64,000 nt of DNA from a virus: the IMG/VR virus record IMGVR_UViG_3300024978_000001; one strand, given 5' to 3'. Every line of letters starts with the position of its first letter. The stretch's first letter is position 1. This document shows positions 5,393-33,858 of this stretch, piece after piece. A model generated the notes under the pieces. The model saw only the letters and a program-made list of their open reading frames with translations. It had not been told where the DNA came from and ran no database searches. Both the position numbers and the translations under genes were made by a program.

Positions 5393-5637
5393 TATCGCGC
5401 GCTCGTGATACCGGCCTTCGCTGGCTCGCTCGCAGCGTAGCCGAACATCTTGCCGGAACCGCCTTTGGCGAACTTGCCGCCATTGCCGGCCGAGTCATGC
5501 TCCGTCACGCCCGGCTTCTGCGAGCCCGCGGCGTCGCTCGGCGCGGTCGTGGTTCGATCGCCATGGCCGAACATCGGGGTGTTGCCGCCTTCGGCGAACT
5601 TGGCGTTCTTCTCGGTCTTCTTGGTGAAGTTGGCCAT
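5392..5637 (-). CDS. small protein with an internal KFA-x-GG-x3-MFG repeat (81 aa)
   Basis: ATG at 5637 with GGAGGG upstream (the ORF is open from 5676). MANFTKKTEKNAKFAEGGNTPMFGH ... GGKFAKGGSGKMFGY. Confidence 0.55.
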   Translation of the reverse strand: MANFTKKTEKNAKFAEGGNTPMFGHGDRTTTAPSDAAGSQKPGVTEHDSAGNGGKFAKGGSGKMFGYAASEPAKAGITSAR

Positions 5638-5709
5638 AACGGCCCTCCGTGAAATAGGGGGATCAAATTGAACCACCCACTCGTGCGTGCAGGGCAGTTG
5701 CGACTTCGT

Positions 5710-6336
5710 TTATTGCTGGACTGCAACCATAAGGTCGCCGTCACGCGCCGGCAGATAGCGCTTCGGTTTGTCGAAGCACGACGCGATCTGGTTGACTGAT
5801 TGCGTAACGCCAGGAACAACAACGCACGCCCCCGGCTTCGCCTGCAGGAACGCCTCCACCGCCTCGTTGACGTGGCACCAGGAACGGATCTGATCGCCGG
5901 AGCCGAAGATCGTGATCTCGTCCTGCGCTGCGCACTTCTCCATAAAGCTGTGGCCGCCATCGCCATAGACGTTCGGCAGGCGGACAACGGCGCAGCCGAA
6001 ATAGCGGGCGTAGTCCTCGCACACGCGCTTGGAGATGGCGTAAGGGTTGACCGGGTAGTTCACCATGGCGCTGGACGCGAACACCACGCGATCGGTGTAC
6101 CGCTCGAAGACCCGCAACGACCCTATGATGTTAGTGCTCGCGTCGCTTCGCGCATCCTTGCAATAGGCGTCGGTTTGCGCCGCGAGGTGATAGACCTGTT
6201 TCGCATCCGGAAGATCGCAGTCGCGAATATCCGTTCCACGCTTCAAGTCGATGCGATGGATGATCTCGCCGCGGCACTCAAGCCGCGCGCACAGATGTTT
6301 GCCGATGAACCCGTCGGCGCCGGTGACCACGATCAC
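5710..6336 (-). CDS. short NAD-dependent epimerase/dehydratase-like (SDR) protein, about 208 aa
   Basis: VIVVTGADGFIGKHL Rossmann motif (GxxGxxG) and YAISK (YxxxK). GTG start at 6336 overlaps the TGA of the upstream gene (GTGA). The longer ORF to 6588 overlaps the methyltransferase and was rejected. Confidence 0.7.
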   Translation of the reverse strand: MIVVTGADGFIGKHLCARLECRGEIIHRIDLKRGTDIRDCDLPDAKQVYHLAAQTDAYCKDARSDASTNIIGSLRVFERYTDRVVFASSAMVNYPVNPYAISKRVCEDYARYFGCAVVRLPNVYGDGGHSFMEKCAAQDEITIFGSGDQIRSWCHVNEAVEAFLQAKPGACVVVPGVTQSVNQIASCFDKPKRYLPARDGDLMVAVQQ

Positions 6337-12030: not shown

Positions 12031-13017
12031 TCACCCGAAATAGTTATGCAGGTCGGTGGCCTGCTGTGTAGTGAGCGGCGCGGTCACAAGCACGGCTGAC
12101 ACCTTGCCCTGCCACCAGTTCGAAGCGGCAAGTGCGGGGATCGTGCCCACCGTGAACAGCGTCGGTGTGCTGGTGTTCGGCACCACGGCAGCGGTCACCG
12201 CGCCGGCGCTGTCAACGTCTATCGACGTTTGGGTCGCACCGTGGATGCTGCGCAAAACATGCACACCGGATAAATCGACATGGGTGTCGGTAGCGTTCGT
12301 GGCCGCGGCGCCGGTGCCGGTGTAGGAACGGGCGCGGTTGACGCCGCCGACAGGAAGACGGGCGACAGAGCGGCCGTTGACAACGCTGGTGGCAGCGTAC
12401 CCCGCCACATGGCGCGTAGTGGCGTCGGCTGCGGCCACATCCTGCGAACACACCACCCAGATTTCGCAAGGGGTAGCGCCGGCCGGCAGCAGTGACATGA
12501 ACGCGGCATCGGTGCATTTGAGATACTGCTGGGCGCCGTCAAAGGTGATGCACGGTGCGCCATTGAGCCCCGTCGGGTCGTACACCGGCTTAAGATTGGG
12601 GGTCGACTGCGCCAGGTTGGCCCCAGTCACGAGGCCAAGCCACGACGACACCGCGTCGGTGTAAGTCGCATCAGAGAGCGCGGTGATCGTGTCGGAGCGG
12701 TTGGCGTCCCAGTATTCGATCAGGCTGCTGCCGAGCGCCGTCACCGGATTGTAGTTCGACGACGGCCCGGTATAGCCAGGGATAATCACGGTCTTGGCGT
12801 TGCGCGCCGCGAGCCCGGTGAGCCCGGTGAGCGCATAGACGTCTTCCCACGTCCCGGTCGGGCCCGCCGCCTGCTGCAGTGCGTCGATCTGCCCCCACAC
12901 GGGAAACGTGCCAGTCGGCCCGGTGAACGCCGGTAAAATCTGGACGCCTTTGTACGTGCCGGTCGGGCCGAGCGGGCCGTCGAGAACGCGGACAAGTTTC
13001 TGGGTGTTGACGGTCAT
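12031..13017 (-). CDS. fibre or receptor-binding-like protein with degenerate GPTGT repeats and a possible LamG/concanavalin-like lectin domain
   Basis: The N-terminus has GPTGTY, GPTGTF and GPTGTW. The SSWLGLVTGANLAQSTPNLKPVYDPTGLNGAPCITFDGAQQYL pattern resembles LamG-type phage proteins. Confidence 0.5.
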   Translation of the reverse strand: MTVNTQKLVRVLDGPLGPTGTYKGVQILPAFTGPTGTFPVWGQIDALQQAAGPTGTWEDVYALTGLTGLAARNAKTVIIPGYTGPSSNYNPVTALGSSLIEYWDANRSDTITALSDATYTDAVSSWLGLVTGANLAQSTPNLKPVYDPTGLNGAPCITFDGAQQYLKCTDAAFMSLLPAGATPCEIWVVCSQDVAAADATTRHVAGYAATSVVNGRSVARLPVGGVNRARSYTGTGAAATNATDTHVDLSGVHVLRSIHGATQTSIDVDSAGAVTAAVVPNTSTPTLFTVGTIPALAASNWWQGKVSAVLVTAPLTTQQATDLHNYFG

Positions 13018-15329
13018 CAGCCGACGCCCCCGGCGACCGAACCCTTAACGCCCGTCATGTGCGGCGTCAGATGCGTCTGCGGCCCCATCGCCTGTGACGG
13101 CGCCGGCGGCTTCATGCCCGACGATTGCCTGGCCGCCTCCTGCATGCCGCCGTGTTGGCCAGCGTGCATGCCCGGGTCGCTGGAAGCGCCCTGGCCGCCT
13201 CCTGGCGCAGCTTCTGGCGCGATCGCGCCCGGCGTACCGATATGCGCGGGTGGGCCCTCCGGCATATGCGCCCGAGCGGCCAGCACACCAGAAGTGAGCT
13301 CGGTCGAGATACGCTTAACGCCAGCCTCAACGCCTTTGTTAACCGCGGCCACGATCGCTTGTTCGATGTCTCCACCTTGCGCTGCCTGTTGCTGTTGCTG
13401 TTTCTCCATCTTCTCGATCTCGGCGTCGGACGGCACCACCTGGTCGCCCTGAATGCCGATCGTCGAGGACACCGATCGCAGCACCGCGGCGCGACCGCCG
13501 ATGCCCATGATCTTCATGTCGGTCGGGTTGTTCGTTGCCGTCAGGAACTCGATCTGGCGCTGCCGCAGCGTCTCGCGCTGGATCGCCACGCTCACGCCGG
13601 TGACGGAAACTTTTTCCTGACCGGTGAGCATCCCGGTGCGATCGGTCAGCATCAGCAGGTCGAATAACTGCAGCAGGCTTTCCTCGATCACGTCGCGGTC
13701 GATGTTCGCGGACACCGTCTGCAGGATCTTCGAGGCGTTGCCCATCAACATCGCCAGGCCCGAAGCCGTACGCCCGGCGCCGCCGCCAGCTTGGCCGCCG
13801 ACGTATTTCGGGATCGCCGACACGTCGTCCGAGATCGAAGTGAACTCCTGCAGGCACTGGATCAGGGCCTGAGCGTTGTTCGCCGGCATGAAGAAGGAGA
13901 TCGGTTGCTTGGCGTTGTTGTTCACGGGGTCGGTGCGGGTGTGCCACCGCTTCCACGGATACATCTCCTCGCCGTTCTCCTCCGGCGCCAGCATGTCGTC
14001 GTTGATGACGACCTGCGGCCCCGACGAGATCGACAGGTTGTTGATCAGCGCGCGCAGCGTGGCGTTGGCGGCTTCCTGCAGGTCGGCGAGCAGATCGGTC
14101 AGACCATTGCCGACAGGCGTACCCGGCACTTTCTCAAAACTCGTGATGAAATACGGATGTCGCTGACGTGGTGAAGGCGACAGGTGTGCCTTGATGACGT
14201 GCGAGCCGATAACCCAGACCTGAACATGATAGTCACGAAGCTCGTCTTGGACAGCGAGGCCGTAATCTTGAAGTACGCGTCCTTGGACATTGCCGTTGAA
14301 CTCCATCATGGTGATCATCGCTGATCTGTTCCACGCCGGGTTTTCGCGGCTCTCCAACACGCTGCGCTCGGCGTCGGTGGTGTCCCAGTTGTCATAGAGA
14401 CCGCCGCGGCCGTACTCGTCGAGCACCGCGCGAATTTCATCGGAGTTGTAGCCGGGCAGGTCGAGCAGATCGTTGAGCTCGGCGCGCGTCACGCGCAGCT
14501 TCTCGATCACGTTGGCGTTGGCGATGTCGGCGACGCCCGGGGTGAACCAGATGTCAAATGGGCTGACCCGGTTCCACGTCAGCACCGGCGTCTGCTGCAC
14601 GGTGGCGCTGCCGCTCGCCCAGTCCACCTTGGGCATGATCTTGACTACGGGGCCCTTGATGCAGGCGAACGGGAAGATCGGCAGGTCGACGATGAACTCG
14701 GCAAGCGCGTGGTAGAAGCTGCCCTCGCGCAGCATGTCCTGGATCTTGTCCTGAGCATACCGCGCCTGTTGCGCCGCTTTCTTCTTCGCCGCGGTCTCGG
14801 CGCCCTCTAGCAACGCCTCGCGTCGCTGCCATAGCTCCTGCGGCGTCGGCGGCGGTAGCCCGGTTTGCTGAACCTGCTGGCTCTCGGCCTGGATCAGCTT
14901 GTCGATTTCCTGCATGATTTCGGGCGGGATGTCCGGATTGGCCGGCGGGTCGAGCGCCCACGGGATGTCGTCGCCGAGATAGATGTCGCGAAGCAGCGAC
15001 GCGGCCGCGCGGCACTTCTGGGCAATCAGCCGTGCGAACACCTGGCTGCCGCCCCATTTACTGATCTCGGCGAGCTTCGTCGGGTCGTACTGGCCATTGA
15101 ACGTCCGCAACGCCGACAGCATGCGGTTGGACCAGCCGGCGTTGGTGTTGCGGTGATTGCGAAAAATTTCAAACTGCGTGCGGACATAACCAGCCAACTC
15201 AGGATACTGAGGCTGTTGGGTCGCAGTTTGTGCGGCGGCTGCGTCGCTGTCCCGTTGCTGGATCTGTCGTTCCAGTTCCGCGGGAGGGATTACCTGTAGG
15301 ACACCGGCCTGGCCAAGCTGATCTGCCAT
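13017..15329 (-). CDS. portal protein (putative); ATG at 15329, ORF open from TTG at 15398
   Basis: About 770 aa, the next large gene after the large terminase. Gly/Ala/Pro-rich C-terminal tail. ATGA coupling to the downstream gene. Called by size and position. Confidence 0.65.
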   Translation of the reverse strand: MADQLGQAGVLQVIPPAELERQIQQRDSDAAAAQTATQQPQYPELAGYVRTQFEIFRNHRNTNAGWSNRMLSALRTFNGQYDPTKLAEISKWGGSQVFARLIAQKCRAAASLLRDIYLGDDIPWALDPPANPDIPPEIMQEIDKLIQAESQQVQQTGLPPPTPQELWQRREALLEGAETAAKKKAAQQARYAQDKIQDMLREGSFYHALAEFIVDLPIFPFACIKGPVVKIMPKVDWASGSATVQQTPVLTWNRVSPFDIWFTPGVADIANANVIEKLRVTRAELNDLLDLPGYNSDEIRAVLDEYGRGGLYDNWDTTDAERSVLESRENPAWNRSAMITMMEFNGNVQGRVLQDYGLAVQDELRDYHVQVWVIGSHVIKAHLSPSPRQRHPYFITSFEKVPGTPVGNGLTDLLADLQEAANATLRALINNLSISSGPQVVINDDMLAPEENGEEMYPWKRWHTRTDPVNNNAKQPISFFMPANNAQALIQCLQEFTSISDDVSAIPKYVGGQAGGGAGRTASGLAMLMGNASKILQTVSANIDRDVIEESLLQLFDLLMLTDRTGMLTGQEKVSVTGVSVAIQRETLRQRQIEFLTATNNPTDMKIMGIGGRAAVLRSVSSTIGIQGDQVVPSDAEIEKMEKQQQQQAAQGGDIEQAIVAAVNKGVEAGVKRISTELTSGVLAARAHMPEGPPAHIGTPGAIAPEAAPGGGQGASSDPGMHAGQHGGMQEAARQSSGMKPPAPSQAMGPQTHLTPHMTGVKGSVAGGVG

Positions 15330-15433
15330 TGAGAAGTTCCAACCAAGAAATTGGCCGGAACGTCCGACGACCCCCCTAAAGGAAAACTTTATGATCAACC
15401 GACGATGGTCGCGCCAATTCGGGGGGCCAAAAA

Positions 15434-15733
15434 ATGGAAATGCGCGACCAGTCAGCAGTGCAACTTCTTGGGCACACTTTTAGCCTCGGGACGCTGCTGT
15501 CAGTCGTCACCGGCCTTCTTCCGTTCGCGGCGTCGCTGGTCGCATTGATCTGGTACATCATCCAGATCTTCGAGAGCGATACCTGGCGCCGCCGCGTCGA
15601 GCGCAAGCGCCTCAAGCGCATCGCGAAACTGCGCGCCGAGCTGGTCGGTCTGGAGACGTTGATGCTTATGTCCAAGCTGCAGCAGAAACAGCCGGACGCT
15701 TCCGAGCCCGCGGACGCAGCCGCTGAGCGATAA
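15434..15733 (+). CDS. possible small membrane protein encoded opposite to the late block (99 aa)
   Basis: ATG with GGGGGG upstream. Hydrophobic helix LGTLLSVVTGLLPFAASLVALIWYIIQIF followed by a basic coil RRRVERKRLKRIAKLRAEL. G/C-ending codons dominate. Fills the terminase-portal gap and overlaps the terminase 3' end by 68 nt. Confidence 0.4.
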   Translation: MEMRDQSAVQLLGHTFSLGTLLSVVTGLLPFAASLVALIWYIIQIFESDTWRRRVERKRLKRIAKLRAELVGLETLMLMSKLQQKQPDASEPADAAAER

Positions 15734-17129
15734 TCGGCACCTGACCGCCGTGCACCACGAGCGCGACGTATTGCAGGTCGTCGGCGACGTGCGAGAAGCC
15801 TTCCTTGTCGGTCTTGTCGGGCACGGTGCGAAGCGCGCCGGTCTTCAATTTGGTGAAGCGGTAGCCGCCGCTCATGGCGCGGCATAGCCACGGGCAGCCC
15901 GCGGCGCTGATCATTAGGGTCGGGCCACCGTTGGTTTGGCGGCTAAGTAGCGCTTCCACAGCTCGTAGACGCGGCTCAATATCATTTGTCGGGGCAGGGA
16001 AGCACGGGAGTCCCATTCGCTGTAGAGCATCAAAGCAGCTCTCCTCCGAGATCGTGCCCTTGGCGACACCCGATGGGTCCCCGACAACACAGACCTTGAA
16101 GCCAAGATACTTGGCTGAGAATAGCCGAGGCTTGAGCGACTGCTGAACGTGCTTTTCGAGGCCGACGTTCGTCGCAGGGACTTCTTCATGGACGATCAGC
16201 CTCCCAAGGTGGTCCATCTGACAGATCAACGACCACGGGTTACGGCCGAAGTCCTGACCGATCAAGAGCGGGTATCCGGGGATCAACTGCGTTTCGGGGA
16301 CGATGTGGAAGTTGCTCTTGAATGTGTTCTTGAACACCGCGGCGCCGCTCGGGTCGTCGCCATATTCGGCCTTCACATATCGCCGCACCCAGTCGCTCTC
16401 CTCGCCATACATCTCGACGAAGCGCTCGTAATACTTGCGGCCCTGCGCCAGCCGCTTCGGATGCCCCTGCGGCAGCTTGAGGGTCTCCTCGGTCTGCAGC
16501 AGCCAGTCGAGGTTTTCAGCGTCGGGCGCGAGACCGGAGGGCTGCTTGAAGATCTGCACGTCGCCGGGAGTGGCGATGTGCTCCTCCATGAAATTGTGCC
16601 AGGGCGTCATTTCGGTCGGGAAGTTGGTGTCGGCGACCCAGCCATGCCACGACGGTACGCCATCCGATCCGGACGGATACCGCCCAAGGCGGCCCGACAG
16701 CGGCGCGATGACGTCGAGGTTCATCTCAATGCACTCCGACATCCACGCGCCTGTGAGCTGCATCGACAGCAGCCGCGCCTGGTCCTCCGCGTTCTCCAGC
16801 GGGATGAACACCCATTCGCTACGCACGTCGTCGAAGTCGACATAGAACGTGTTGTCGCTCACTTTCCAGTTACCTATGCCCTTGAGCCAGTTCTGGCAAT
16901 CTTTCAGCACGGTGTCCTTAAGTTGCTTCAACGTCTGCCGCACCACGGCGTGGCGGGTGTGGCGCAAGCCGTCGGCGCCGGGGCGTTGCGACACGCTACG
17001 CCGTAACAGCTCGATCACGCAGCCGGTGGTTTTCCCTGAGCCGACGGGTCCTGCGATCAGCCGGCCAAACGCGTCTGAGCGCATGAACCGCGCGACGGTC
17101 GGGGGCGCCCTGTATTTGAGCCCCGCCAT
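15666..17129 (-). CDS. terL: terminase large subunit
   Basis: Walker A motif AGPVGSGKTTGCV near the N-terminus. Size is typical for TerL. ATG at 17129 forms an ATGA overlap with the upstream gene stop (alternative GTG at 17165 in the ORF track). Confidence 0.85.
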   Translation of the reverse strand: MAGLKYRAPPTVARFMRSDAFGRLIAGPVGSGKTTGCVIELLRRSVSQRPGADGLRHTRHAVVRQTLKQLKDTVLKDCQNWLKGIGNWKVSDNTFYVDFDDVRSEWVFIPLENAEDQARLLSMQLTGAWMSECIEMNLDVIAPLSGRLGRYPSGSDGVPSWHGWVADTNFPTEMTPWHNFMEEHIATPGDVQIFKQPSGLAPDAENLDWLLQTEETLKLPQGHPKRLAQGRKYYERFVEMYGEESDWVRRYVKAEYGDDPSGAAVFKNTFKSNFHIVPETQLIPGYPLLIGQDFGRNPWSLICQMDHLGRLIVHEEVPATNVGLEKHVQQSLKPRLFSAKYLGFKVCVVGDPSGVAKGTISEESCFDALQRMGLPCFPAPTNDIEPRLRAVEALLSRQTNGGPTLMISAAGCPWLCRAMSGGYRFTKLKTGALRTVPDKTDKEGFSHVADDLQYVALVVHGGQVPIIAQRLRPRARKRPAVSAAAWT

Positions 17130-18247
17130 CAGGCCGCTTCCTGGAGCTGCGGCCAGCTCACCCACTCCGGCTTGGCGGCTTGGGTTTGCTCGCGCCCCTC
17201 AAGCAGCACTTCCCAGCGCGCGGTGATGCCGTGCTTGGGGTGATCGAACCACAACATCTGCGACGGCCGCGAAAACGGCGCGCGCAACTGCAGCATGGCG
17301 TACTCGTCGAAGCCCTTGAGCGAATTGTTGACGATGGCGGTCGGCAGCCAGAGCGCCTGGTGCCAGTGCCCCATCAGAAGGATGTCGAACTCACGCTCGA
17401 CCTGGCTCTCGGAGCGGTGCGTCTTGATGGCGCCTCGCATAATGGGCCCGATGGCGCCGATGATCCCGTCGCCGCCCTTCGTCCCCAGGCTGTCACCGTG
17501 GGTGAGCATGTATCGCGTACCATACACCTTGAAGTGTGCGTCGGCGCTCTCGGGGATATAGAACTGGACGTTGCGGGATTTCTTGAAGTGCCGGGCCAGC
17601 GCGCAATACACGTTCCACTCATGCGAGGTGAAGACGCGGTCCTTCATCTGCATCTTCTTGGTCGAGCGGCCGTGGTTACCAACGACACACGGAACGAAGA
17701 CACGGCCGAATTGGGTCGCGACCGTTTCAAGCCCCGCGCCAATGAGGTCAATGAGGTCCTCAATCGCCTGTTGCGTAGTCCGATCGTTCGTCTTCGCGAG
17801 CTCCTCATGTATATCTCCGCCAAGCATATCCCCCCCGAGGCAGACGACAATACCAGGGTACTTATGCTTCGCGTTTCCCATATGGCTGAATGCAAGATCG
17901 CACGTCGTCTCGGTAAGACGGCGAACCCGTGTCTTGGCGATGTTGCGGTTGAACTCATTGACGCCCCCGACCTGGGATTTGAACACCCGCTCGCCATAGT
18001 GCCAGTCGCTCCACATCGTGATCGGGCAGCCGCGCTCAGCGCCGGCACGGTAGCGAACGATCCACTCGGGCGGGTCGGGATCGTAGGCTGCGATCTTGTA
18101 GATCTGCTCGCGGATCTCGCGGGCGGTGTCGTCGCTCTTGCGGAGCGCGGCGACTTCTTTGCGGAGCGCGAGCAGCTCGGCGTTGCGCTGGCGAATGATT
18201 TCGTTGGCGTCAGCCAGCTTATCGTCAAGTGTTTTCTTCGCGCTCAT
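17129..18247 (-). CDS. metallophosphoesterase with an N-terminal coiled coil
   Basis: SDWHYG (DxH), LGGDMLGGD (GD), VGNHG (GNH), LTHGD and MGHWH (GHxH). The N-terminus LADANEIIRQRNAELLALRKEVAALRK is coiled-coil-like. Confidence 0.7.
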   Translation of the reverse strand: MSAKKTLDDKLADANEIIRQRNAELLALRKEVAALRKSDDTAREIREQIYKIAAYDPDPPEWIVRYRAGAERGCPITMWSDWHYGERVFKSQVGGVNEFNRNIAKTRVRRLTETTCDLAFSHMGNAKHKYPGIVVCLGGDMLGGDIHEELAKTNDRTTQQAIEDLIDLIGAGLETVATQFGRVFVPCVVGNHGRSTKKMQMKDRVFTSHEWNVYCALARHFKKSRNVQFYIPESADAHFKVYGTRYMLTHGDSLGTKGGDGIIGAIGPIMRGAIKTHRSESQVEREFDILLMGHWHQALWLPTAIVNNSLKGFDEYAMLQLRAPFSRPSQMLWFDHPKHGITARWEVLLEGREQTQAAKPEWVSWPQLQEAA

Positions 18248-18519: not shown

Positions 18520-19165
18520 TGCCTTTTGCTGCGATGACAAGATCGCTACCGGCTCCAAGGTCGATAACAATCTGGTATCTCTCTCCTGTGGGGGCAGGCC
18601 CAGAAGGTGGAGTGTCGACACCTGCGATTTTTGCAACGACCTTAAATGCTTCAACAACGTCGCCAAGTTTTTCGGCTGCATTGCCCATGCGGTTGCCGAT
18701 GACCGGCATCTGCTGTTCAAGCGCGGCGAGCGCTTGCATCCGGAGCCGCGCTTCTGTCGAGGCGGCGCCTTGCCAGACTTTGACTTCTTGCTGCAGCGTC
18801 GCCTTGAAGAACTTGTTGTGCTTGCAGAGGTACTCATACTGGGCCTGGGTCAGTTTGTATTTCTGCAGGATCGCCGGCAGCAGCCCGATGTCGTGCGCGA
18901 TCTCCCGCGCGAGCTGCGCCATGGCGACGGTCGTGATGTCCGGAGGACCCACGAGAGCTTTGACGGCCTGGACTTCGTCGTCGGTCAGTTCTTTTGGCGT
19001 TTGCTCGCTGAGATTGGTCCCGGTCGGGGGATGTGCGCCCCCTGTTCGGCCTGCAATATCTGCCCCGCTCGCAGGCTCTGCGTCTTGCACCAGGTCATTT
19101 ACCGTGGCGGTAACAAACCCCGTCTCGATCGTCTCGTCGAGAAACTCGGTAGGATCGGCGCTCAC
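18458..19165 (-). CDS. hypothetical protein; small-terminase candidate by position only
   Basis: 235-aa ORF upstream of the phosphoesterase and TerL. No recognisable motif. Confidence 0.5.
   Translation of the reverse strand: MSADPTEFLDETIETGFVTATVNDLVQDAEPASGADIAGRTGGAHPPTGTNLSEQTPKELTDDEVQAVKALVGPPDITTVAMAQLAREIAHDIGLLPAILQKYKLTQAQYEYLCKHNKFFKATLQQEVKVWQGAASTEARLRMQALAALEQQMPVIGNRMGNAAEKLGDVVEAFKVVAKIAGVDTPPSGPAPTGERYQIVIDLGAGSDLVIAAKGNAPASPGSDQTPALRADGKG
19099..19113. repeat. TTACCG-N3-CGGTAA palindrome copy
   Basis: TTACCGTGGCGGTAA, inside CDS 18458..19165 (V-T-A-T-V). Confidence 0.95.
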
Positions 19166-19734
19166 GCCGCCTCCTGCTGTTCATGTCCTTGAAGGTAGCG
19201 GCCCAGCATGCCGAGCACCTTGTCGCGCTCCGCGGCAGCGAGGGTGTAGCCCTGGCCCCAGATCGTCTTGAGCTCGACCCCGTGGGGTCGAAGTTTTTTG
19301 CGGATATGGCAGATGACCACGTCGATCATCTTCGGGTCGGTCTCGTCCGGCGCCAGCATCCGGGTGGTCTCGATCGCCGCGTGCACCTGCGCCTTGGTGA
19401 TCTGCGGCCGGCGCAGCAGCGCGATGAACACCGCGACCTGCAACCTTGTCAGCCTAAAGACGGCAGCGAGCGCGAGCCCCAGCGTGTGGTCGTCGAGATT
19501 GAGTGCTGACGACCCCGGCTGTTTGCGCGAGCGGCGGAATGTGCCGGGGGGCCAGTCGCTCTGCGGCAGCTCGACCAGCCGGCCATCCTCGATGGCGTAG
19601 CGGAGCACTTCATAGATCTCGTCGCTCGGGGTGTGCGTCGCCCTGGCGATGGCCCTAACTGGCACGCCTTCATCGGCGAGGGAGATCATCGTGTCTTCGA
19701 GCGGCACGACTTTGAGTGGCGGCTGCGGGATCAT
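19162..19734 (-). CDS. DNA-binding regulator with an OmpR/PhoB-type winged-helix C-terminal domain
   Basis: IDVVICHIRKKLRPHGVELKTIWGQGYTL matches the Trans_reg_C pattern. The N-terminus has an HTH-like segment, LADEGVPVRAIARATHTPSDEIYEVLR. ATG at 19734 (ORF open from TTG at 19749). First sizeable gene of the late block. Confidence 0.65.
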   Translation of the reverse strand: MIPQPPLKVVPLEDTMISLADEGVPVRAIARATHTPSDEIYEVLRYAIEDGRLVELPQSDWPPGTFRRSRKQPGSSALNLDDHTLGLALAAVFRLTRLQVAVFIALLRRPQITKAQVHAAIETTRMLAPDETDPKMIDVVICHIRKKLRPHGVELKTIWGQGYTLAAAERDKVLGMLGRYLQGHEQQEAA

Positions 19735-19735
19735 G

Positions 19736-19816
19736 TCAGTGGTTCGCAAAGAACATGACCAGTATGGTGGCGCAGACGATCGTCGTGCAAATCACCCAAG
19801 CAGTAGGAACGCTCAT
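19736..19816 (-). CDS. possible 26-aa hydrophobic leader peptide
   Basis: ATG at 19816. Translation MSVPTAWVICTTIVCATILVMFFANH. Its TGA sits 1 nt before the regulator ATG. Too short to judge. Confidence 0.2.
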   Translation of the reverse strand: MSVPTAWVICTTIVCATILVMFFANH

Positions 19817-19878
19817 CTTGAAACCCCAAAGGTTGATACCTTGCGGGATCGTTGGGGTTTCGTTTTCGAAGCGTCTAG

Positions 19879-19907
19879 AAAAACAAATGCCAGTGGCATT
19901 TGTTTTT
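19879..19907. terminator. bidirectional hairpin terminator or operator
   Basis: aaaaacaaatgcc-agt-ggcatttgttttt: a perfect 13-bp inverted repeat with an A-tract on one side and a T-tract on the other. Contains the GGCATTT motif seen in the control region. Confidence 0.6.
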
Positions 19908-19985
19908 ATAGCCACGCCGGCGCACGTGCTTCTTATACCGGTTTAGGCACAGCCTGCGAGGTCCACCGTAAGGGGGCCGGCAGAT

Positions 19986-20022
19986 ACGCCCAGGGAATAA
20001 CAACCCTGGGCGTTTTTGTTTT
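19986..20022 (+). terminator. hairpin with a T-tract on the plus strand
   Basis: acgcccaggg-aataacaa-ccctgggcgt followed by ttttgtttt. No called plus-strand gene ends here. Confidence 0.45.
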
Positions 20023-20047
20023 GGCGCTTAAGAGCCCCGGGGTGCGG

Positions 20048-20302
20048 TCATGCGACCTGTTCCCGGGGCTCTCGCGCGGCACCCGACTTCGGCGGCGGGG
20101 AAGTGGAAGCGTGCACGGCGTCGATGGCGCGGCAGAGGCGCGTGCTCTGCGCCACAAACTCGATGATGCTCTCGCGGTCGCACCGCAGCCGCAGTCGCCG
20201 GTATGCGGTGTCGAACTCGTCGGCGACGGCATGCAGGTGCATCACAGCCGTGGAGGGGGGCTGGGTCCGCACGATCTCGCGGGCTTCGAGCAGCAGGTTC
20301 AT
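20048..20302 (-). CDS. hypothetical protein (84 aa)
   Basis: ORF track. ATG lies 13 nt downstream of the 25-nt element copy 2. Confidence 0.5.
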   Translation of the reverse strand: MNLLLEAREIVRTQPPSTAVMHLHAVADEFDTAYRRLRLRCDRESIIEFVAQSTRLCRAIDAVHASTSPPPKSGAAREPREQVA

Positions 20303-20315
20303 GCCGCGATCTCAG

Positions 20316-20340
20316 GGCGAGATAGTTGCGGTTTTCTTAA
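20316..20340. repeat. 25-nt element ggcgagatagttgcggttttcttaa, copy 2 of 2
   Basis: Identical to 11136..11160. Includes the TAA stop of the GIY-YIG gene. Confidence 0.95.
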
Positions 20341-20789
20341 TGCGTTCTTCGGTACTCGCGGTCGTATTCATTCTTGCATGGCTTGCAATAATTCGGGCCG
20401 GGTGGCTTCGCGCCGCCACACTTCGGACATTTCAAAATCGGGCCGAGCGACCGCGGCCGCGCTCCTGCGCGTCGTCGCCTCTCGCGCTGGTACTCGTTGA
20501 AACACTTCGCGCAATATGCTCGGCCGACCTTGTAGTCTTTTTCAGCGCCGCACTTCGGGCAACGATCTCGAAGTCGATCGTTGTATTTTGGGTTCTGTTC
20601 CCGGATCAGCTTCCATTCAAGTCGCTCCGCCGTTGCACGGTCTGCGATCTCAGTCGTGTTGACCTTTGCAACTTCTGTGAACCACGCCTTTTGATAGGCG
20701 TGCTCTGCAAGTCGGCGCCCCCAATTCTTGGTGCGGCCGACGTAGAGCAGTTCGCCTGTTTTGCTGAGCAACGCATATACGGTGTACAT
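20337..20789 (-). CDS. GIY-YIG family endonuclease with C-terminal zinc-ribbon repeats
   Basis: MYTVYALLSKTGELLYVGRTKNWGRRLAEH ... NPKYN (GIY-YIG core), then CPKCG...CAKC and CPKCG...CKPC. Confidence 0.8.
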   Translation of the reverse strand: MYTVYALLSKTGELLYVGRTKNWGRRLAEHAYQKAWFTEVAKVNTTEIADRATAERLEWKLIREQNPKYNDRLRDRCPKCGAEKDYKVGRAYCAKCFNEYQRERRRRAGARPRSLGPILKCPKCGGAKPPGPNYCKPCKNEYDREYRRTH

Positions 20790-21005
20790 GCAATGACGAT
20801 ATAGGTTGGTACCTTACGAGATTATTGTTCGGGGTCTTTTCGAAAAATACCCCCTACAAATTTCAGAAGGGGGTCTCGCGAAGCGAGACAACGGGGCCCC
20901 GTCCAAGTACCCCCGGAGGGGCACAAGGGCGAGACCGTCGCAGTCTCTCACGTCTGCCGCGTCGGGGCCTCAAGGTGACACGGTTTCACCTTGAGGCCGC
21001 GGGGA

Positions 21006-21185
21006 TCACTTGTCGATTGTGGCGTTCAACGAGACCTTGACATCGCCAAAGTTTGAGAAGCCGCTCGTTGATGCCAGAAGGCGCGTCTTGCCGGACTTGG
21101 ACTCCTTAGCCGCTTCGCGCGCCGCCTTCGAAGTGTCAATCACCAAGGTGAGAATATCGCCCTTCATTTCGCCTTTGACGTTCAT
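21006..21185 (-). CDS. small hypothetical protein (59 aa)
   Basis: ATG at 21185 with GAGGAG upstream. MNVKGEMKGDILTLVIDTSKAAREAAKESKSGKTRLLAST... The upstream part of the 129-aa ORF looks non-coding. Confidence 0.5.
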   Translation of the reverse strand: MNVKGEMKGDILTLVIDTSKAAREAAKESKSGKTRLLASTSGFSNFGDVKVSLNATIDK

Positions 21186-21395
21186 GGTAACTCTCCTCAG
21201 AGTTGCAACCGCCGGACCATCCGGCCGGTTCGCTTTCGGCGCGTCGGGGCCGTCTCGCGCACGCGTCGCGCGAGCGTAAGCGAGCGGAATGTGTGCGAAG
21301 AACGCGCGCATCACGCGCGAGCGCGCACGTAAGGAGCGCGCAGGATAAGTCCAGGAAGCCTGTTCCTGAGCCCTCACAAGGTTAAACCTTTTCAA

Positions 21396-22128
21396 GGATT
21401 ATATTCATAAAAGGCGTAATGGCAAAATGCCAGTGCCTTAATTTGGTCACACTCTCAGGTGGCCGGGCGCGCGGTTTCGTGATCGTGGAACTTTGAAACA
21501 AAATTTCGGGGCGCTGGCAATTGTTGTGGCATTTAGCCGGCAGGGGAGGTGGGGCAAAATATAACCTAACTTCAATGGGTTAGCTTTTTCTATTGTATCA
21601 TTGTACCTTTTTGGGCGAGATAAACGGCAAAATGGCACTGATTTTTTGGCCTCGCCCTAGGGTCGGCATTGAGGAAAAAATGGTCAGGGAGACCCCCACT
21701 TCTGCTTATTTGGAATTTTTTCAAAATATGACATTATTTCAATGACTTAGTTTTTTTGTGTCTTTTTCAAGGTGGCACTTTCACAATTTCGCCACACTCT
21801 CACCTCCCCGAATTTCGTCCCCTAGGATTATCCCTCTGGCATTTGGGCATTTAGGCATTTCGCCATTTTCCAAAAATTACTTCACGACATTATCACGTCT
21901 CTGTGAGCTGAAAATGAACATCTGTTAATCTTAGTGGCTTTTTTAAGATGCCAAGGTGTTCTGGCATTGTTCCTCAATTCCTGACCATTAAGATACACCC
22001 CAGTTCCATCTTATTCAGTCCTGTGCCGGCACATGGGGCGCCGCGACGCGGCGATTTTGCGCCGCGGCTTCTCCTCGACGAGGAGCGGCTGAGCGGCAGC
22101 GAAACCCACTCTGAGGAGAGCAAGGAAA
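21396..22128. promoter_or_regulatory. AT-rich divergent control region between the leftward and rightward blocks (promoters and/or origin)
   Basis: Visibly AT-rich compared with the rest of the window, with no convincing ORF. At least 12 GGCA(A/T)(A/T)T-type motifs. cacactctca occurs twice (21448, 21793). ttcaatgNNttagNttttt occurs twice (about 21571, about 21739). Confidence 0.6.
21837..21869. repeat. four tandem 8-nt units (N)GGCATTT
   Basis: tggcattt gggcattt aggcattt cgccattt. Confidence 0.9.
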
Positions 22129-22515
22129 ATGACCTCATACACGAAGAAGTTGTACGAAATCGCCCCCTCTGCCACACGCCAGATCCGCCGCAGAGAGCTG
22201 CACGATTACCGTTGGGGCGGCAGCACCAGAAACGTCACCTTGGCCAGTTTCGGAGTGGAAGTTGCAAAGGCTGCGCCCGCCATGGCGGGCGCAGCCTTTG
22301 GTCAACGTCTCACGTCACCTGCGCTCACGGCGTTCTACGTCAAGTCGCAGGGCTATCCGGCGAAGGTCATCCACGCTGCCGACAGTTTCGCTGCGCGGCG
22401 TGAATACGCCGACCACTACAAGGTGCCAGTCACGCATGTGACCGCGGTTATGCGGGGCCAACGCAGCGCAAGCGGAGCCAGCGCAAGTGCGGCTCGCTCG
22501 TTACCGTCGCGGTAA
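22129..22515 (+). CDS. hypothetical early protein (128 aa)
   Basis: First rightward ORF. GAGGAGAG RBS upstream of the ATG. The stop codon is supplied by a palindrome copy. Confidence 0.6.
   Translation: MTSYTKKLYEIAPSATRQIRRRELHDYRWGGSTRNVTLASFGVEVAKAAPAMAGAAFGQRLTSPALTAFYVKSQGYPAKVIHAADSFAARREYADHYKVPVTHVTAVMRGQRSASGASASAARSLPSR
22501..22515. repeat. TTACCG-N3-CGGTAA palindrome copy
   Basis: TTACCGTCGCGGTAA. Read as L-P-S-R-stop at the end of 22129..22515. Lies 17 nt upstream of ATG 22533. Confidence 0.95.
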
Positions 22516-22867: not shown

Positions 22868-23140
22868 ATGAGCGAAGAGCAAACCACTTTCACCTTTCAC
22901 AGCGATCCAAGCCATGGCTGGCTTGAGGTTGATTGGACTGACCTCAAGCGGCTCGGGCTCAACCCGACCGATTTCAGCCGCTACAGCTATCGCAACGGCA
23001 ACACGTTCTACCTGGAAGAGGATTGCGACGCGCCGAAGTTCATAGCGGCCTACGAAACCAAGCACGGCCGCAACTCGTTTCGGTTCGAAGAACCATTCGA
23101 GGAAAGCCACTTCATTCGCAATCTGCCGAAGATCTACTAG
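22868..23140 (+). CDS. hypothetical early protein (90 aa)
   Basis: ATG at 22868 (MSEEQTTFTFHSDPSHGW...) within ORF 22739..23140, 3 nt after the previous stop. Confidence 0.6.
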   Translation: MSEEQTTFTFHSDPSHGWLEVDWTDLKRLGLNPTDFSRYSYRNGNTFYLEEDCDAPKFIAAYETKHGRNSFRFEEPFEESHFIRNLPKIY

Positions 23141-23306
23141 GGCGAAACCGGCGCAAGCCGGTCTGACGGTGGTGCCGTTACTGATGAGCCCATTCGTTCC
23201 GTTAACAAATTTCACAAGCATGTGAGTCTGTACGTTTTCATCGCACCGACTCTTAACGCTTCGTTTTCGACCTGCGCTTCGTTGCGCCAATGCTGAGGAG
23301 CAACAC

Positions 23307-23687: not shown

Positions 23688-23923
23688 TGTTTGCAGTAGG
23701 GCTGAGGACGGATTTGTTCCTGATCGCGACGGACAACGCCACTTGTTACGAGGTTGTGGCGAACCGCTACTGCGACATTCGCTGGCTTTATCGCAAGCAC
23801 AAGCGCGAGCTGCGCGAGGCCCAGGCGGACCGGCCGGGGATGCTGTTTGCAGCGTTCGCTGCCGGCATGTCGTGTGGCGTGCTGCTCACGATCGTCGTCA
23901 CTGGTGGTGTGTACCTTGGCTGA
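23687..23923 (+). CDS. hypothetical protein with a C-terminal hydrophobic helix (78 aa)
   Basis: ATG at 23687 overlaps the previous TGA (TGATG). MFAVGLRTDLFLIATDN ... FAAFAAGMSCGVLLTIVVTGGVYLG. Confidence 0.55.
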   Translation: MFAVGLRTDLFLIATDNATCYEVVANRYCDIRWLYRKHKRELREAQADRPGMLFAAFAAGMSCGVLLTIVVTGGVYLG

Positions 23924-24389
23924 GCTGAGCGAAAGCCTACGGCAGCGGATCAGAGAGCGCCCTGATTTATGGCGAGAGGTTTGCGTGCTCTCGTTAGAAC
24001 TATTGGAGGGCACGAACGAGCACGTCGACGCGGTGCTCGCGTTGTACCGCAACCCGGCATCAACGAAGGCGCAGTTTAGCGCCGCCGCCCACTCCGCCGC
24101 CCACTACGCCGCCCACGCCTACGCCACCGCCCACTCCGCCGCCCACTACGCCGCCCACGCCGCCTACGCCACCGCCCACTCCGCCGCCCACTACGCCGCC
24201 AACGCCGCCGCCCACGCCGCCGCCGCCTACGCCGCCGCCCACGCCGCCGCCAACGCCGCCGCCAACGCAATCGTAGCCGTCAAAGGTGACAAGGTGGAAC
24301 GGTTCATTGCTGAACTCGAATTGTTGGTGAGGTTCGCGCCCCAACAAACGCACGACCGAGAAGAAGGAGACCAACCAGAGAATGATTAG
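23916..24389 (+). CDS. Ala/His/Tyr tandem-repeat protein (start uncertain: TTG 23916 or GTG 23904/23907)
   Basis: The frame of ORF 23754..24389 reads AHSAAHYAAHAYAT / AHSAAHYAAHAAYAT / AHSAAHYAANAAAHAAAAYAAAHAAANAAANA, flanked by ordinary sequence. Confidence 0.5.
   Translation: MAELSESLRQRIRERPDLWREVCVLSLELLEGTNEHVDAVLALYRNPASTKAQFSAAAHSAAHYAAHAYATAHSAAHYAAHAAYATAHSAAHYAANAAAHAAAAYAAAHAAANAAANAIVAVKGDKVERFIAELELLVRFAPQQTHDREEGDQPEND
24087..24269. repeat. 42/45-bp tandem repeat encoding AHSAAHYAAHA(A)YAT
   Basis: Unit 1 is 24087-24128, unit 2 is 24129-24173, and unit 3 from 24174 degenerates towards about 24269. Confidence 0.85.
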
Positions 24390-31848: not shown

Positions 31849-33858
31849 ATGCCGCATCATCTTCTGTTCCTCGATAACGAAGCCTATTACGACGACGACT
31901 TCTCACTGCGGAAGATGACGCCGGCTGAATACATCCTGAGCCCTCAATTCGAGGAGCATATGTGGGCCGTTAAAGCCGACAACGGCCCACACGAGATCAT
32001 CGACGGACCTGACTTCCCCAAGTGGCTGTCGCAGTTCGACCCGCGCGAGACCACAACGGTCACCTACAACGCGCTGTATGACAACTCCATCCTTGCGTGG
32101 CGGCACGGGTTCGTGCCGGCCACCATGATCGACGCGATGGCGATGGTGCGAGCGCTGGACGGGCACCTGCTCACCTATTTCAGTCTCGCCGCTGTGTCTG
32201 AGCACCTGGGGCTGGACGCCAAGGGCGACTGCATTCACAAGGTGAAAGGCTTGAGACGTTCTCAGATATTGGCTGACCCCGCGCTTTGGCGCGAGTTCAG
32301 CCAATATGCGTTGCGCGACAACATCAACTGCGAACAGATTTTCCTGCACTATTACCCCAGATTGCCGCGCTCGGAGCGCCGTCTGATGGACATGGTGCTG
32401 CGTTGCTGCGTCGAGCCACGGTTTGTCTGCGACACAGTGATGCTCAATCAGCATATTCAGGACGTGCAGGCTGAGAAAGCCGCGCTGGTTGCCGCCGTGG
32501 GCAACGTGGACAAGAAAGACATCATGTCCACGGTCAAGTTCAAGGCGGCTCTGGAGGCGCTGGGCGTCGACGTCGAGTACAAGGATAGCCCGACCGCCAA
32601 AGACGAGTTCGGACTGCCGAAGAAGATCCCCGCATTCTCCAAGACCGACGAGTTCATGGAGAAACTTTGTAATGACCCCGATCCTGCTGTGGCCGCATTG
32701 GCCACAGCCCGTATCGGGTTGAAGAGTACGCTGGAAGAAACGCGTTCACAACGCCTATGGCAGGTAGGGCAGTTGCCCTGGGATACACTGCCAGACGGCA
32801 CCCCGCGCCTATATTCGGGCGGCACGATGCCAGTCCCTCTCCGCTTTGGAGGTGCCCATACGCACCGACTAAGCGGAGATTGGAAAATGAACATGCAGAA
32901 CATGCCGACAGTGCGCGGCAGCAAAGGTAAGAGCAAGCTCAGGCTGTCGCTCAAAGCCCCGCCCGGCCATACGGTGGTCACCTGCGACCTGGGGCAGATC
33001 GAGGCGCGACTGGTTGCGTGGATATGCGGCGCAATCGGTTTGACCGAGGAGTTCGCGCGCTACGACGCCGGCGATAAGAGCTATGACCCCTATAACCGGC
33101 TCGGCAGCGCGATCTTCGGACGGCCGGTCAACCGCAAGCTAGTCGGCACGCCCGACGAGATTATGGGCTTCATCGGCAAGACCGGCATTCTCGGGCTCGG
33201 CTACGGCTGCGGCAAAGAAAATTTCGACCGGATGATCATCCGCTCGGCACGCTCCATGAAGATGGATATTTCCTCGATCTACAACCGCGCCATCGGCGAC
33301 AAGGGCGTCGACACCTATCGCTCGCGCTACCCGCAAATCCCCGCGGCGTGGCGCAAGCTGAGTTCGTACATCGAGAGCTATTGGTTCACGAAGGCCGGCA
33401 ACAACTACTTCGTCGAGTTCGGCCCGGTGACGATCTCATACGGCAAGGTGCTAGGCCCGAACGGTCTGGCGATGGAGTACGCCGACCCGGATCGCAAATG
33501 GGTACCGGACGCGAACGGCGCCGGCGGGCGCTACGAGTATTCTTACCGCTACGGTAAAATGCGCCACCGCATCTACGGCGCAAAGCTGCTCGAAAACATC
33601 GTGCAGTTCTTAGCTCGCATCATCGTGATGAACGCAGCTCTTCGCATACGAGATCGCGGCAAATACACACAACACCCATACGCGTTCCGCTTTGTGCTGC
33701 AGGCGCATGACGAGCTTGTTTTCATCATCCCCGACGAAATACTGGACGAAGCGAAAACCGTCATTCATTCGGAAATGATCAGACGCCCGTCGTGGGCACC
33801 GGACTTGCCGCTTGTTGCTGAGATCGGCACCGGGGCGTCCTATGGAGAAGCAAAGTGA
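31849..33858 (+). CDS. family A DNA polymerase (T7-like, with N-terminal exonuclease region)
   Basis: DLGQIEARLVAW (motif A), FIGKTGILGLGYGCG (motif B-like) and LQAHDELVF (motif C). Confidence 0.9.
   Translation: MPHHLLFLDNEAYYDDDFSLRKMTPAEYILSPQFEEHMWAVKADNGPHEIIDGPDFPKWLSQFDPRETTTVTYNALYDNSILAWRHGFVPATMIDAMAMVRALDGHLLTYFSLAAVSEHLGLDAKGDCIHKVKGLRRSQILADPALWREFSQYALRDNINCEQIFLHYYPRLPRSERRLMDMVLRCCVEPRFVCDTVMLNQHIQDVQAEKAALVAAVGNVDKKDIMSTVKFKAALEALGVDVEYKDSPTAKDEFGLPKKIPAFSKTDEFMEKLCNDPDPAVAALATARIGLKSTLEETRSQRLWQVGQLPWDTLPDGTPRLYSGGTMPVPLRFGGAHTHRLSGDWKMNMQNMPTVRGSKGKSKLRLSLKAPPGHTVVTCDLGQIEARLVAWICGAIGLTEEFARYDAGDKSYDPYNRLGSAIFGRPVNRKLVGTPDEIMGFIGKTGILGLGYGCGKENFDRMIIRSARSMKMDISSIYNRAIGDKGVDTYRSRYPQIPAAWRKLSSYIESYWFTKAGNNYFVEFGPVTISYGKVLGPNGLAMEYADPDRKWVPDANGAGGRYEYSYRYGKMRHRIYGAKLLENIVQFLARIIVMNAALRIRDRGKYTQHPYAFRFVLQAHDELVFIIPDEILDEAKTVIHSEMIRRPSWAPDLPLVAEIGTGASYGEAK
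33543..33557. repeat. TTACCG-N3-CGGTAA palindrome copy
   Basis: TTACCGCTACGGTAA, inside the DNA polymerase gene (Y-R-Y-G-K). Confidence 0.95.

Follow-up and report, generated by a model that had tools for sequence, protein, structure and literature searches.

A probable SaPI/Cch-type replication origin made of inverted octamer arrays in the divergent gap of an environmental phage genome

Replication origins served by the initiator-helicases of the Rep/Cch family, known from staphylococcal pathogenicity islands (SaPI) and the staphylococcal cassette chromosome mec (SCCmec), comprise 6-12 penta- or hexanucleotide iterons and an AT-rich centre, with at least two iterons on each side in opposite directions, which are recognised by a C-terminal winged helix (PMC9371898). 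Two hexamers of the helicase are thought to load, one on either side, and Cch itself combines a DUF927 domain with a C-terminal winged helix that binds double-stranded DNA (PMC9371898). Here we analyse the virus record IMGVR_UViG_3300024978_000001, a stretch of 64,000 nucleotides (the window), and in it the gap between two divergent gene blocks, the AT-rich core of which (about 21400-21970) is probably the phage replication origin, of the self-loading-helicase kind found in SaPI and SCCmec.

Short repeats of comparable size are used in other ways elsewhere. The alpha protein of phage P4 is a single primase-helicase polypeptide, the C-terminal part of which binds octamer repeats (TGTTCACC) at ori; its helicase is of another lineage, and replication of P4 also depends on crr, a further cluster of repeats at a distance of 4.5 kb. 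The lambda-type origin works with the O protein, four 19-bp iterons and an AT-rich stretch. The iterons of lambda and of iteron plasmids are 17-22 bp long and have one orientation, their initiator is not a helicase, and the origin usually lies in or next to the initiator gene. MetJ uses operator arrays of tandem 8-bp metboxes.

The window holds a phage genome of about 64 kb with about 61 % GC overall. Leftward genes run from 21185 to 1 and from 64000 to 46749 and include the large terminase (15666-17165), the portal/adaptor (13017-15398) and internal virion proteins; the rightward block (22129-46378) encodes DNA polymerase A (31849-33858), an SNF2 helicase, nucleotide-metabolism enzymes and a primase-helicase of 1030 amino acids (43286-46378). 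The gap at 21186-22128 is the sole divergent junction of the genome.

A first-pass annotation, made from the letters of the window, had described this region as dividing the two blocks, which it does, and as an AT-rich control region with GGCA(A/T)(A/T)T motifs that might hold early promoters, operator arrays for a phage regulator or an iteron-type origin. The AT-richness is confirmed for the core, where 100-nt windows between 21350 and 22000 have 31-58 % GC, most of them 31-50 %, versus about 61 % in the rest of the window; it does not extend to the outer left part (21186-21395) and the right-hand 110 nt or so (22020-22128), which are GC-rich leaders. The four tandem octamers were recovered by Tandem Repeats Finder (period 8, 3.9 copies, 21838-21868), and all further copies listed are present, among them GGCAAAAT at 21421, 21553 and 21626, as is the inverted element TGGCAAAATGCCA at 21420-21432. 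The 10-mer CACACTCTCA does occur twice (21448 and 21793), as part of a 35-nt repeat with 71 % identity, and the imperfect repeat ttcaatg..ttag..ttttt was found as a 35-nt pair (21555-21589 and 21722-21756; 80 % identical). The picture of a series in one direction had to be given up: the repeats are octamer-phased copies of G[GC]CATTT on both strands with dyad symmetry, and the GGCAAAAT copies at 21421 and 21626 are pieces of tandem sets in minus orientation. The elements of the core and the proposed initiator are as follows.

21409-21431, minus strand: outer-left set of three octamer iterons in tandem, read on this strand as GGCATTTT GCCATTAC GCCTTTT (21431-21409).
21516-21534, plus strand: two single copies, GGCAATT at 21516 and GGCATTT at 21528.
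21604-21647, minus strand: block 1, with TACCTTTTT at 21604-21612, the inner-left tandem pair AAACGGCA AAATGGCA at 21622-21637 and a T6 run at 21642-21647.
21665-21969, plus strand: scattered single copies, GGCATTG at 21665, GGCACTT at 21774 and GGCATTG at 21963.
21690-21770: AT-rich centre, candidate DNA-unwinding element, 22-28 % GC.
21838-21869, plus strand: right iteron set of four tandem octamers, GGCATTTG GGCATTTA GGCATTTC GCCATTTT.
43286-46378, plus strand: proposed cognate initiator, 1030 amino acids, with a PrimPol domain, a DUF927 helicase resembling SaPI Rep and Cch, and a C-terminal domain (CTD).

Read on the minus strand, the inner-left pair is TGCCATTT TGCCGTTT (21637-21622). The outer-left and right sets are complementary at 83 % over 23 nt, and another inverted match reaches 93 % over 14 nt. 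Exact copies of G[GC]CATTT number seven in 733 bp, compared with an average of 0.68 and no more than 4 in 1000 dinucleotide shuffles; with at most one mismatch there are 19 copies, against 8.4 in the shuffles and 2.65 predicted from the density in the rest of the window. The gap repeats are non-random. Between the inner-left and right sets, at about 21700-21760, lies the least stable 60-mer duplex of the entire window, with a free energy of -65.8 kcal/mol versus a window mean of -92.3 (standard deviation 5.3), five standard deviations off.

The helicase part of the primase-helicase matches Pfam DUF927 (E-value 4.7e-19; 69.6 bits versus a cut-off of 22.6). A profile of seven family members, compared with the PDB, matched 8tch_A, the SaPIbov1 initiator-helicase (7e-16), and 5dgk_A, the SCCmec Cch (2.3e-14). 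The same structures were found by Foldseek (5dgk 6e-12, 8tch 1.5e-10; next match 4.5e-3) with an AlphaFold2 model of residues 540-1030, which has a predicted local distance difference test score (pLDDT) of 68.7 and was built on a shallow alignment of 5 homologues; the alignment of the model to Cch spans the full length. Residues 400-453 of this medium-confidence model (about 939-992 of the protein) form a helix-helix-strand-strand block with pLDDT 60-84. Close relatives of the primase-helicase were not found with the window protein alone as the query, and alignment searches were needed. The layout of the gap matches the published description of SaPI-type origins (PMC9371898).

Relatives were collected by a search with the phosphoesterase-like protein (17129-18247) followed by an alignment search with the winged-helix protein (19162-19749). 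This yielded 10 plus 80 IMG/VR loci and 19 metagenome loci (designated L001 and so on), most of the long contigs measuring 60-70 kb. In nearly all loci with enough flanking sequence an AT-rich stretch is present at 1.5-4 kb upstream of the winged-helix gene, and wherever this could be called the stretch lies at a divergent junction. When four gaps were aligned with MAFFT the leaders alone aligned, and the cores were compared by anchors. In the relatives the motif of the window is swapped for another short repeat and the layout is unchanged: a TACCTTTT block, then a tandem pair at the inner left with a T run after it, the AT-rich centre, and a right tandem set of opposite orientation. The element order of block 1 recurs in L003, L005, L006, L009 and L030, each with its own octamer, and tandem arrays occupy the same relative position as the right set in L005, L006, L009, L030, L040, L046 and L059. 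The repeat is GGACATTT in L006, L009, L040 and L059; GACATTTA in L046/L048; GCCATTT in L030; CCCATT in L005; CTGTCTA in L003; CCAATT in L037; ATCATATT in L062; GGATCATT in L066; GCGAATAA in L088; and GTGTAAAG in L082. Such a lineage motif is nearly confined to the gap, with 12 copies inside and one outside in 21 kb of L009, and 11 and none in L040, 10 and none in L037.

We counted tandem recurrences of hexamers in 37 non-redundant gaps, in coding controls of equal length and in shuffles. At period 8 the gaps have 88 recurrences versus 10 in the coding controls and 5.3 in the shuffles, the other periods from 5 to 14 giving 7-33 each in the gaps, and 30 of the 37 loci have at least one period-8 array. 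Pairs of arrays in exact inverted orientation, under a strict exact-match test, were found in 14 of the 37, six of them spaced by about 234-264 bp, and the stability minimum lies between the two arrays in eight of these 14. Conservation of the motifs in relatives, a comparison that the first-pass annotation had suggested, is therefore of a particular kind: the motif sequence is not conserved, whereas its period, arrangement and position are. This is the pattern expected of sites that co-evolve with a sequence-specific protein.

To see which protein varies along with the octamer, primase-helicase genes were compared in twelve genomes with a known gap. Among the genomes with GACATTT (L040, L009, L059 and L048), pairwise identity is 44-54 % for the helicase and 34-48 % for the CTD, versus 27-39 % and 17-28 % in cross-motif pairs involving them, and the helicase+CTD module of this group is absent from all 8 genomes with other motifs (identity at most 39 %). 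L037, which has CCAATT, groups with L040, L009 and L059 in the winged-helix gene (63-65 %) and the primase domain (57-58 %); its octamer and module are different (helicase 37-39 %, CTD 20-27 %). L048 shows the reverse: it shares the octamer and the module, although its winged-helix gene (44-53 %) and primase domain (41-45 %) place it as an outgroup. Given the incongruence of L037 and L048, the match of octamer and module does not simply follow the genome tree. A blind IMG/VR search with the GACATTT helicase+CTD module returned exactly five contigs at 48 % or more, the next match having 39 %: the four known ones and L036, the gap of which had been scored as GACATTT beforehand, its helicase being unseen until then. 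That the octamer follows a module located 21 kb off, rather than the genes at a distance of 2 kb, argues for functional coupling. In the mosaic primase-helicase gene (window 43286-46378, homologues L149-L257) the primase domain and the helicase+CTD module give different relationships, and this conflict, for example of L040 versus L037 and L048, points to recombination inside the gene. A pattern scan with ACCAATTNGACCAATT for CCAATT arrays in the contig of L150 gave chance hits among the matches listed.

With moderate confidence we interpret the gap as a SaPI/Cch-type iteron origin placed in the divergent promoter gap, with at least the leftward promoter built into the outer array. Of the functions proposed at first pass, the iteron origin is the one supported by the inverted octamer sets around the least stable DNA, by an initiator of the SaPI Rep type, and by the tracking of octamer and helicase. 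In such an origin the primase-helicase would recognise octamer-phased G[GC]CATTT, probably via its CTD. The opposite sets around 21700-21760 (21409-21431 and 21622-21637 on the minus strand, 21838-21869 on the plus strand) would load two helicase rings, which would melt the AT-rich centre and then move apart, and replication would thereafter proceed co-directionally with transcription into both gene blocks. As the -35 element of the leftward promoter (21425-21398) lies inside the outer-left array, binding of the initiator would be expected to affect this promoter as well.

Several findings weigh against this interpretation. The origin would be 21 kb from the helicase gene, while SaPI origins lie directly downstream of rep, and near 46.4 kb, where the helicase gene ends (46378), there is no cluster of G[GC]CATTT but a single copy at 46052. 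GC skew, which the first-pass annotation had suggested as a check, was computed and shows no switch at 21-22 kb; AT skew tracks the direction of transcription only. A C-terminal winged helix is suggested only by the medium-confidence model (pLDDT 68.7), and in six of the 14 loci with inverted pairs the stability minimum lies outside the pair. The co-variation involves a single motif class in four or five lineages, with two incongruent taxa, and it cannot separate the helicase from a tightly linked gene; it comes from the relatives, the helicase module of the window having no close relative, so that its pairing with GGCATTT is a presumed one. Finally, the overlap of the outer-left array with the promoter is explained equally well if the octamers are operators.

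This last point calls for the promoter and the two leaders, which flank the core.

21398-21425, minus strand: sigma70-like promoter called by consensus match, TTGCCA, 16 nt, TATAAT, with the -35 element at 21425-21420 and the -10 element at 21403-21398.
21186-21395, minus strand: GC-rich leader of the leftward operon, the first gene of which is an open reading frame (ORF) of 59 amino acids (21006-21185).
21236-21250, minus strand: conserved box of the left leader, GCCCCGACGCGCCGA.
22020-22128, plus strand: GC-rich leader of the rightward (early/replication) operon.
22038-22053, 22058-22098 and 22108-22120, within the right leader: box GCGCCGCGACGCGGCG, an imperfect hairpin and the ribosome-binding block ACTCTGAGGAGAG, respectively.
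21377, 21393, 21604-21612, 21766-21774 and 21950-21958: copies of the motif (C)AAGGT(G/A).

The leftward promoter has 11 of 12 consensus positions and is the best sigma70-like site in the 2.8 kb from 19600 to 22400, judged by the Escherichia coli consensus; two octamers of the outer-left set meet to form its -35 element, and the GC-rich leader starts just downstream of the promoter. Near the right leader nothing scores above 8 of 12 by the same consensus, and the lone candidate with 8 of 12 lies in the AT-rich centre. As the promoter consensus of the actual host may differ, the scan is weak evidence either way. Of the promoters proposed at first pass, one strong sigma70-like site is present, but it points leftward, and a convincing rightward one matching the E. 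coli consensus was not found. Promoters of the sigma54 type were rejected because the TGGCA copies lack TTGC at the needed spacing, and distributed promoters of a phage polymerase because the searches turned up no gene for an RNA polymerase and the motif keeps to the gap.

The main rival, which we regard as unlikely, is that the gap is a transcription control region only, without any part in replication: the octamers would be operators of a lineage-specific repressor or activator that acts on the divergent promoters, early and late. It would suit the only divergent junction of the genome and the overlap of the outer-left array with the -35 element of a promoter with 11 of 12 consensus positions; moreover, MetJ-like ribbon-helix-helix repressors use tandem 8-bp operator arrays, and the highly mosaic early genes to the right could hide a variable regulator. 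Such a regulator would have to change with the octamer, and none that co-varies was found: the winged-helix protein, the 59-aa protein and the first rightward gene are conserved across motif classes, and no early-gene cluster is common to all GACATTT genomes. The inner arrays, too, surround the stability minimum and are over 200 bp away from any leader, the right array adjoins no consensus-type rightward promoter, and the octamer tracks a helicase module 21 kb off. The operator array put forward by the first-pass annotation has accordingly been left without a co-varying candidate, neither the winged-helix regulator nor the small flanking gene changing with the octamer.

The individual reader candidates were rejected on the following grounds. 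The winged-helix protein (19162-19749, minus strand) matches Pfam Trans_reg_C (29.5 bits versus a cut-off of 26.2) and is kept family-wide; its recognition helix KMVDVMICKLRKKL is identical in L005 (CCCATT), L006/L009 (GACATTT) and L015, so that an OmpR/PhoB-type reader is contradicted by a constant helix with differing octamers, and also by a period of 8 instead of 10-11. The 59-aa product of the first leftward gene, which L009 lacks, has 71 % identity between the window and L003 despite their unrelated motifs. The first rightward gene has an N-terminus conserved across motif classes. Clustering of the ORFs of 40 loci gave no right-flank cluster that matches the motif classes, the early genes being mosaic; cluster 34 (Cys-rich, 90-120 aa) is present in only 4 of the GACATTT loci and is missing in L036 and L040.

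A combined origin and transcription switch, in which helicase loading on the octamers would set the divergent promoters, appears quite unlikely. The leftward promoter heads the packaging/virion operon, and late expression would then be coupled to the start of replication. A second layer would consist of the mirror-image leader boxes GCCCGACGCGGC and CAAGGTG, read by the two-domain winged-helix protein, and the pairs of octamer and module would be mutually exclusive specificities that block the use of each other's origins by co-infecting relatives.

The two divergent leaders share a conserved box, sense-oriented in each, with the consensus (T)TGCCCGACGCGGCA, CCCGACG(C/G)GGC, which about 17 relatives retain regardless of the octamer; the left-leader box is kept in sense orientation in L003, L005, L006, L009, L030, L031, L037, L040, L046, L050, L051, L056 and L059. 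It always lies within a short inverted repeat, the stem register of which varies: in alignment A4 the paired columns sum to 38-41, with registers differing between sequences. An RNA hairpin of the lambda nut or HK022 put kind was rejected because of these inconsistent registers, and the box is accordingly treated as an element of sequence rather than of established structure. An unbiased hexamer count brought out a further motif common to the family, (C)AAGGT(G/A), which occurs 92 times in gaps versus 19 times in coding controls. No other hexamer is repeated as widely in the gaps: 17 of 37 loci have three copies or more, often in tandem with period 8, and the motif is found also in the gaps of L005, L030, L040, L056, L062, L063 and others. 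As this motif is invariant across lineages, its reader must differ from that of the octamer; the leader boxes and (C)AAGGT(G/A) are candidate targets of the conserved winged-helix protein or of a host factor. We also observed that the ribosome-binding block ACTCTGAGGAGAG at 22108-22120 is an exact 13-nt inverted copy of 21191-21203, the two copies belonging to the first rightward and the first leftward gene, respectively. The winged-helix protein has two DNA-binding-like parts, an N-terminal helix-turn-helix-like one ('LADEGIPVRAIARAT') and the C-terminal Trans_reg_C domain, and its gene sits just upstream of the terminase operon; a late activator and a small-terminase-like protein are its candidate roles.

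The repeats might also bind a small terminase at a packaging site (pac/cos), like lambda cosB or the hexamer sets of P1 pac, but this is very improbable. The region is upstream of the operon with the winged-helix protein, a 235-aa protein, the phosphoesterase-like protein, the large terminase and the portal, and in P1 pac, too, two sets of short repeats surround a central site; against this, the DNA-reading helix of the winged-helix protein stays constant while the octamer changes, the octamer tracks the helicase module and in L037 and L048 is incongruent with the packaging-side genes, and the contig ends of the relatives do not coincide with the gap. Chance or low-complexity repeats of an AT-rich spacer without sequence-specific function, a source that AT-rich DNA makes plausible for many short repeats and that could account for the two-copy 10-mer and 20-mer, are already refuted by the shuffle counts (exact copies about 10-fold over the shuffle mean and above all 1000 shuffles) and the period test (17-fold over shuffles in 37 independent loci), position and orientation being conserved while the sequence changes.

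The core of the motif also occurs outside the gap.

19875-19911: palindrome CTAGAAAAACAAATGCCA g TGGCATTTGTTTTTATAG, both arms of which carry the motif.

The presence of the motif core in the arms, noted at first pass for a hairpin at this place, is correct; the link to the gap is not supported by the relatives, none of those compared having a palindrome built of its own motif outside the gap. The palindrome folds as RNA with -23.5 kcal/mol, is flanked by A and T runs and resembles a bidirectional terminator; it might or might not serve as a further binding site. About 75 nt from it, at 19986-20013 on the plus strand and within the leftward block, a GC-rich hairpin is followed by a plus-strand T run (ACGCCCAGGG..CCCTGGGCGT TTTTGTTTTG), and so opposes the direction of the genes.

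Of the other genes near the gap, that at 20337-20789 (minus strand) encodes a GIY-YIG endonuclease (PHROG endonuclease families, E-value 1e-10). No counterpart was found by tblastn in the relatives searched, and the gene was probably inserted as a homing endonuclease between the winged-helix gene and the gap. The early region has a weak Rfam match to Hammerhead_II at 23140-23195 on the plus strand (30.6 bits versus a gathering score of 37; E-value 0.0023), and the ORF at 23754-24389 (plus strand) encodes a long repeat rich in alanine, histidine and tyrosine (AHSAAHYAAHA...). Rfam gave nothing inside the gap and elsewhere weak sub-threshold matches only. Genes for RNA polymerase, integrase and partition proteins were not found in the 64-kb window, nor were tRNAs.

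The closest cultured phages are the Rhizobium phages RHph_TM3_14A, TM27 and TM29 (unclassified Caudoviricetes), which have the same gene order as the window and a primase-helicase that is 30 % identical. In RHph_TM3_14A (L001) the divergent gap has no octamer arrays; an intergenic region of the early block with 25-34 % GC (5550-6100 of the locus, about 19.5-20.1 kb of the record) contains copies of TAATGAT/ATCATTA in both orientations and may be an origin module at another position. A search of phage GenBank DNA gave a sole match of 184 nt at 69 % identity, and no prophage copy was found in 185,579 bacterial genomes with the conserved phosphoesterase-like protein as the query. The metagenome contig L025 (ERZ778020 NODE-27269, 1576 nt) shows 100 % protein identity to the phosphoesterase-like gene of the window and marks a sample that contains the window phage or a near-identical one.

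If the gap is an origin of the proposed type, a large uncultured family of environmental phages of 60-70 kb uses a Rep/Cch-type initiator known from staphylococcal islands, and dozens of natural pairs of 8-bp repeat and helicase module become available for the study of DNA reading and of the evolution of origin specificity by module exchange. It would also provide a rule for finding origins, namely two inverted period-8 arrays around a stability minimum at a divergent junction.

Among the systems introduced above, MetJ operators resemble the gap in their tandem 8-bp repeats overlapping a promoter. No ribbon-helix-helix gene was identified here, and inverted sets around an unwinding element are not known from MetJ operators. 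With lambda-type origins and iteron plasmids the gap would share initiator-binding repeats beside an AT-rich unwinding element and a repeat specific to the initiator, and it differs from them in repeat length, in the two orientations of its sets, in the helicase nature of the proposed initiator and in the distance from its gene. P4 is close to it in having a primase-helicase and octamers, but no second repeat cluster comparable to crr was found in the window.

The likeness is greatest to the staphylococcal elements. Cch (5dgk), an MCM-like helicase, is the best structural match of the modelled helicase+CTD, over about 497 aligned columns, although the sequence identity is 16-17 % and SCCmec is another type of element in another host. 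As in SaPI (PMC9371898), the initiator belongs to the same helicase family, with a primase fusion as in PriRep5; short repeats accompany an AT-rich centre, with at least two oppositely oriented repeats on each side; and the repeat differs between elements and matches the cognate helicase, here as judged from the relatives. Unlike SaPI origins, which have penta- or hexanucleotides and lie directly downstream of rep, the proposed origin has a 7-nt core with 8-bp phasing and lies in the divergent promoter gap 21 kb from the helicase gene; it belongs to a phage of 60-70 kb and not to a satellite, and it carries in addition the conserved CAAGGTG motif and leader boxes. The best-supported interpretation is that the gap represents a new form of the SaPI/Cch-type origin in a large family of uncultured phages.

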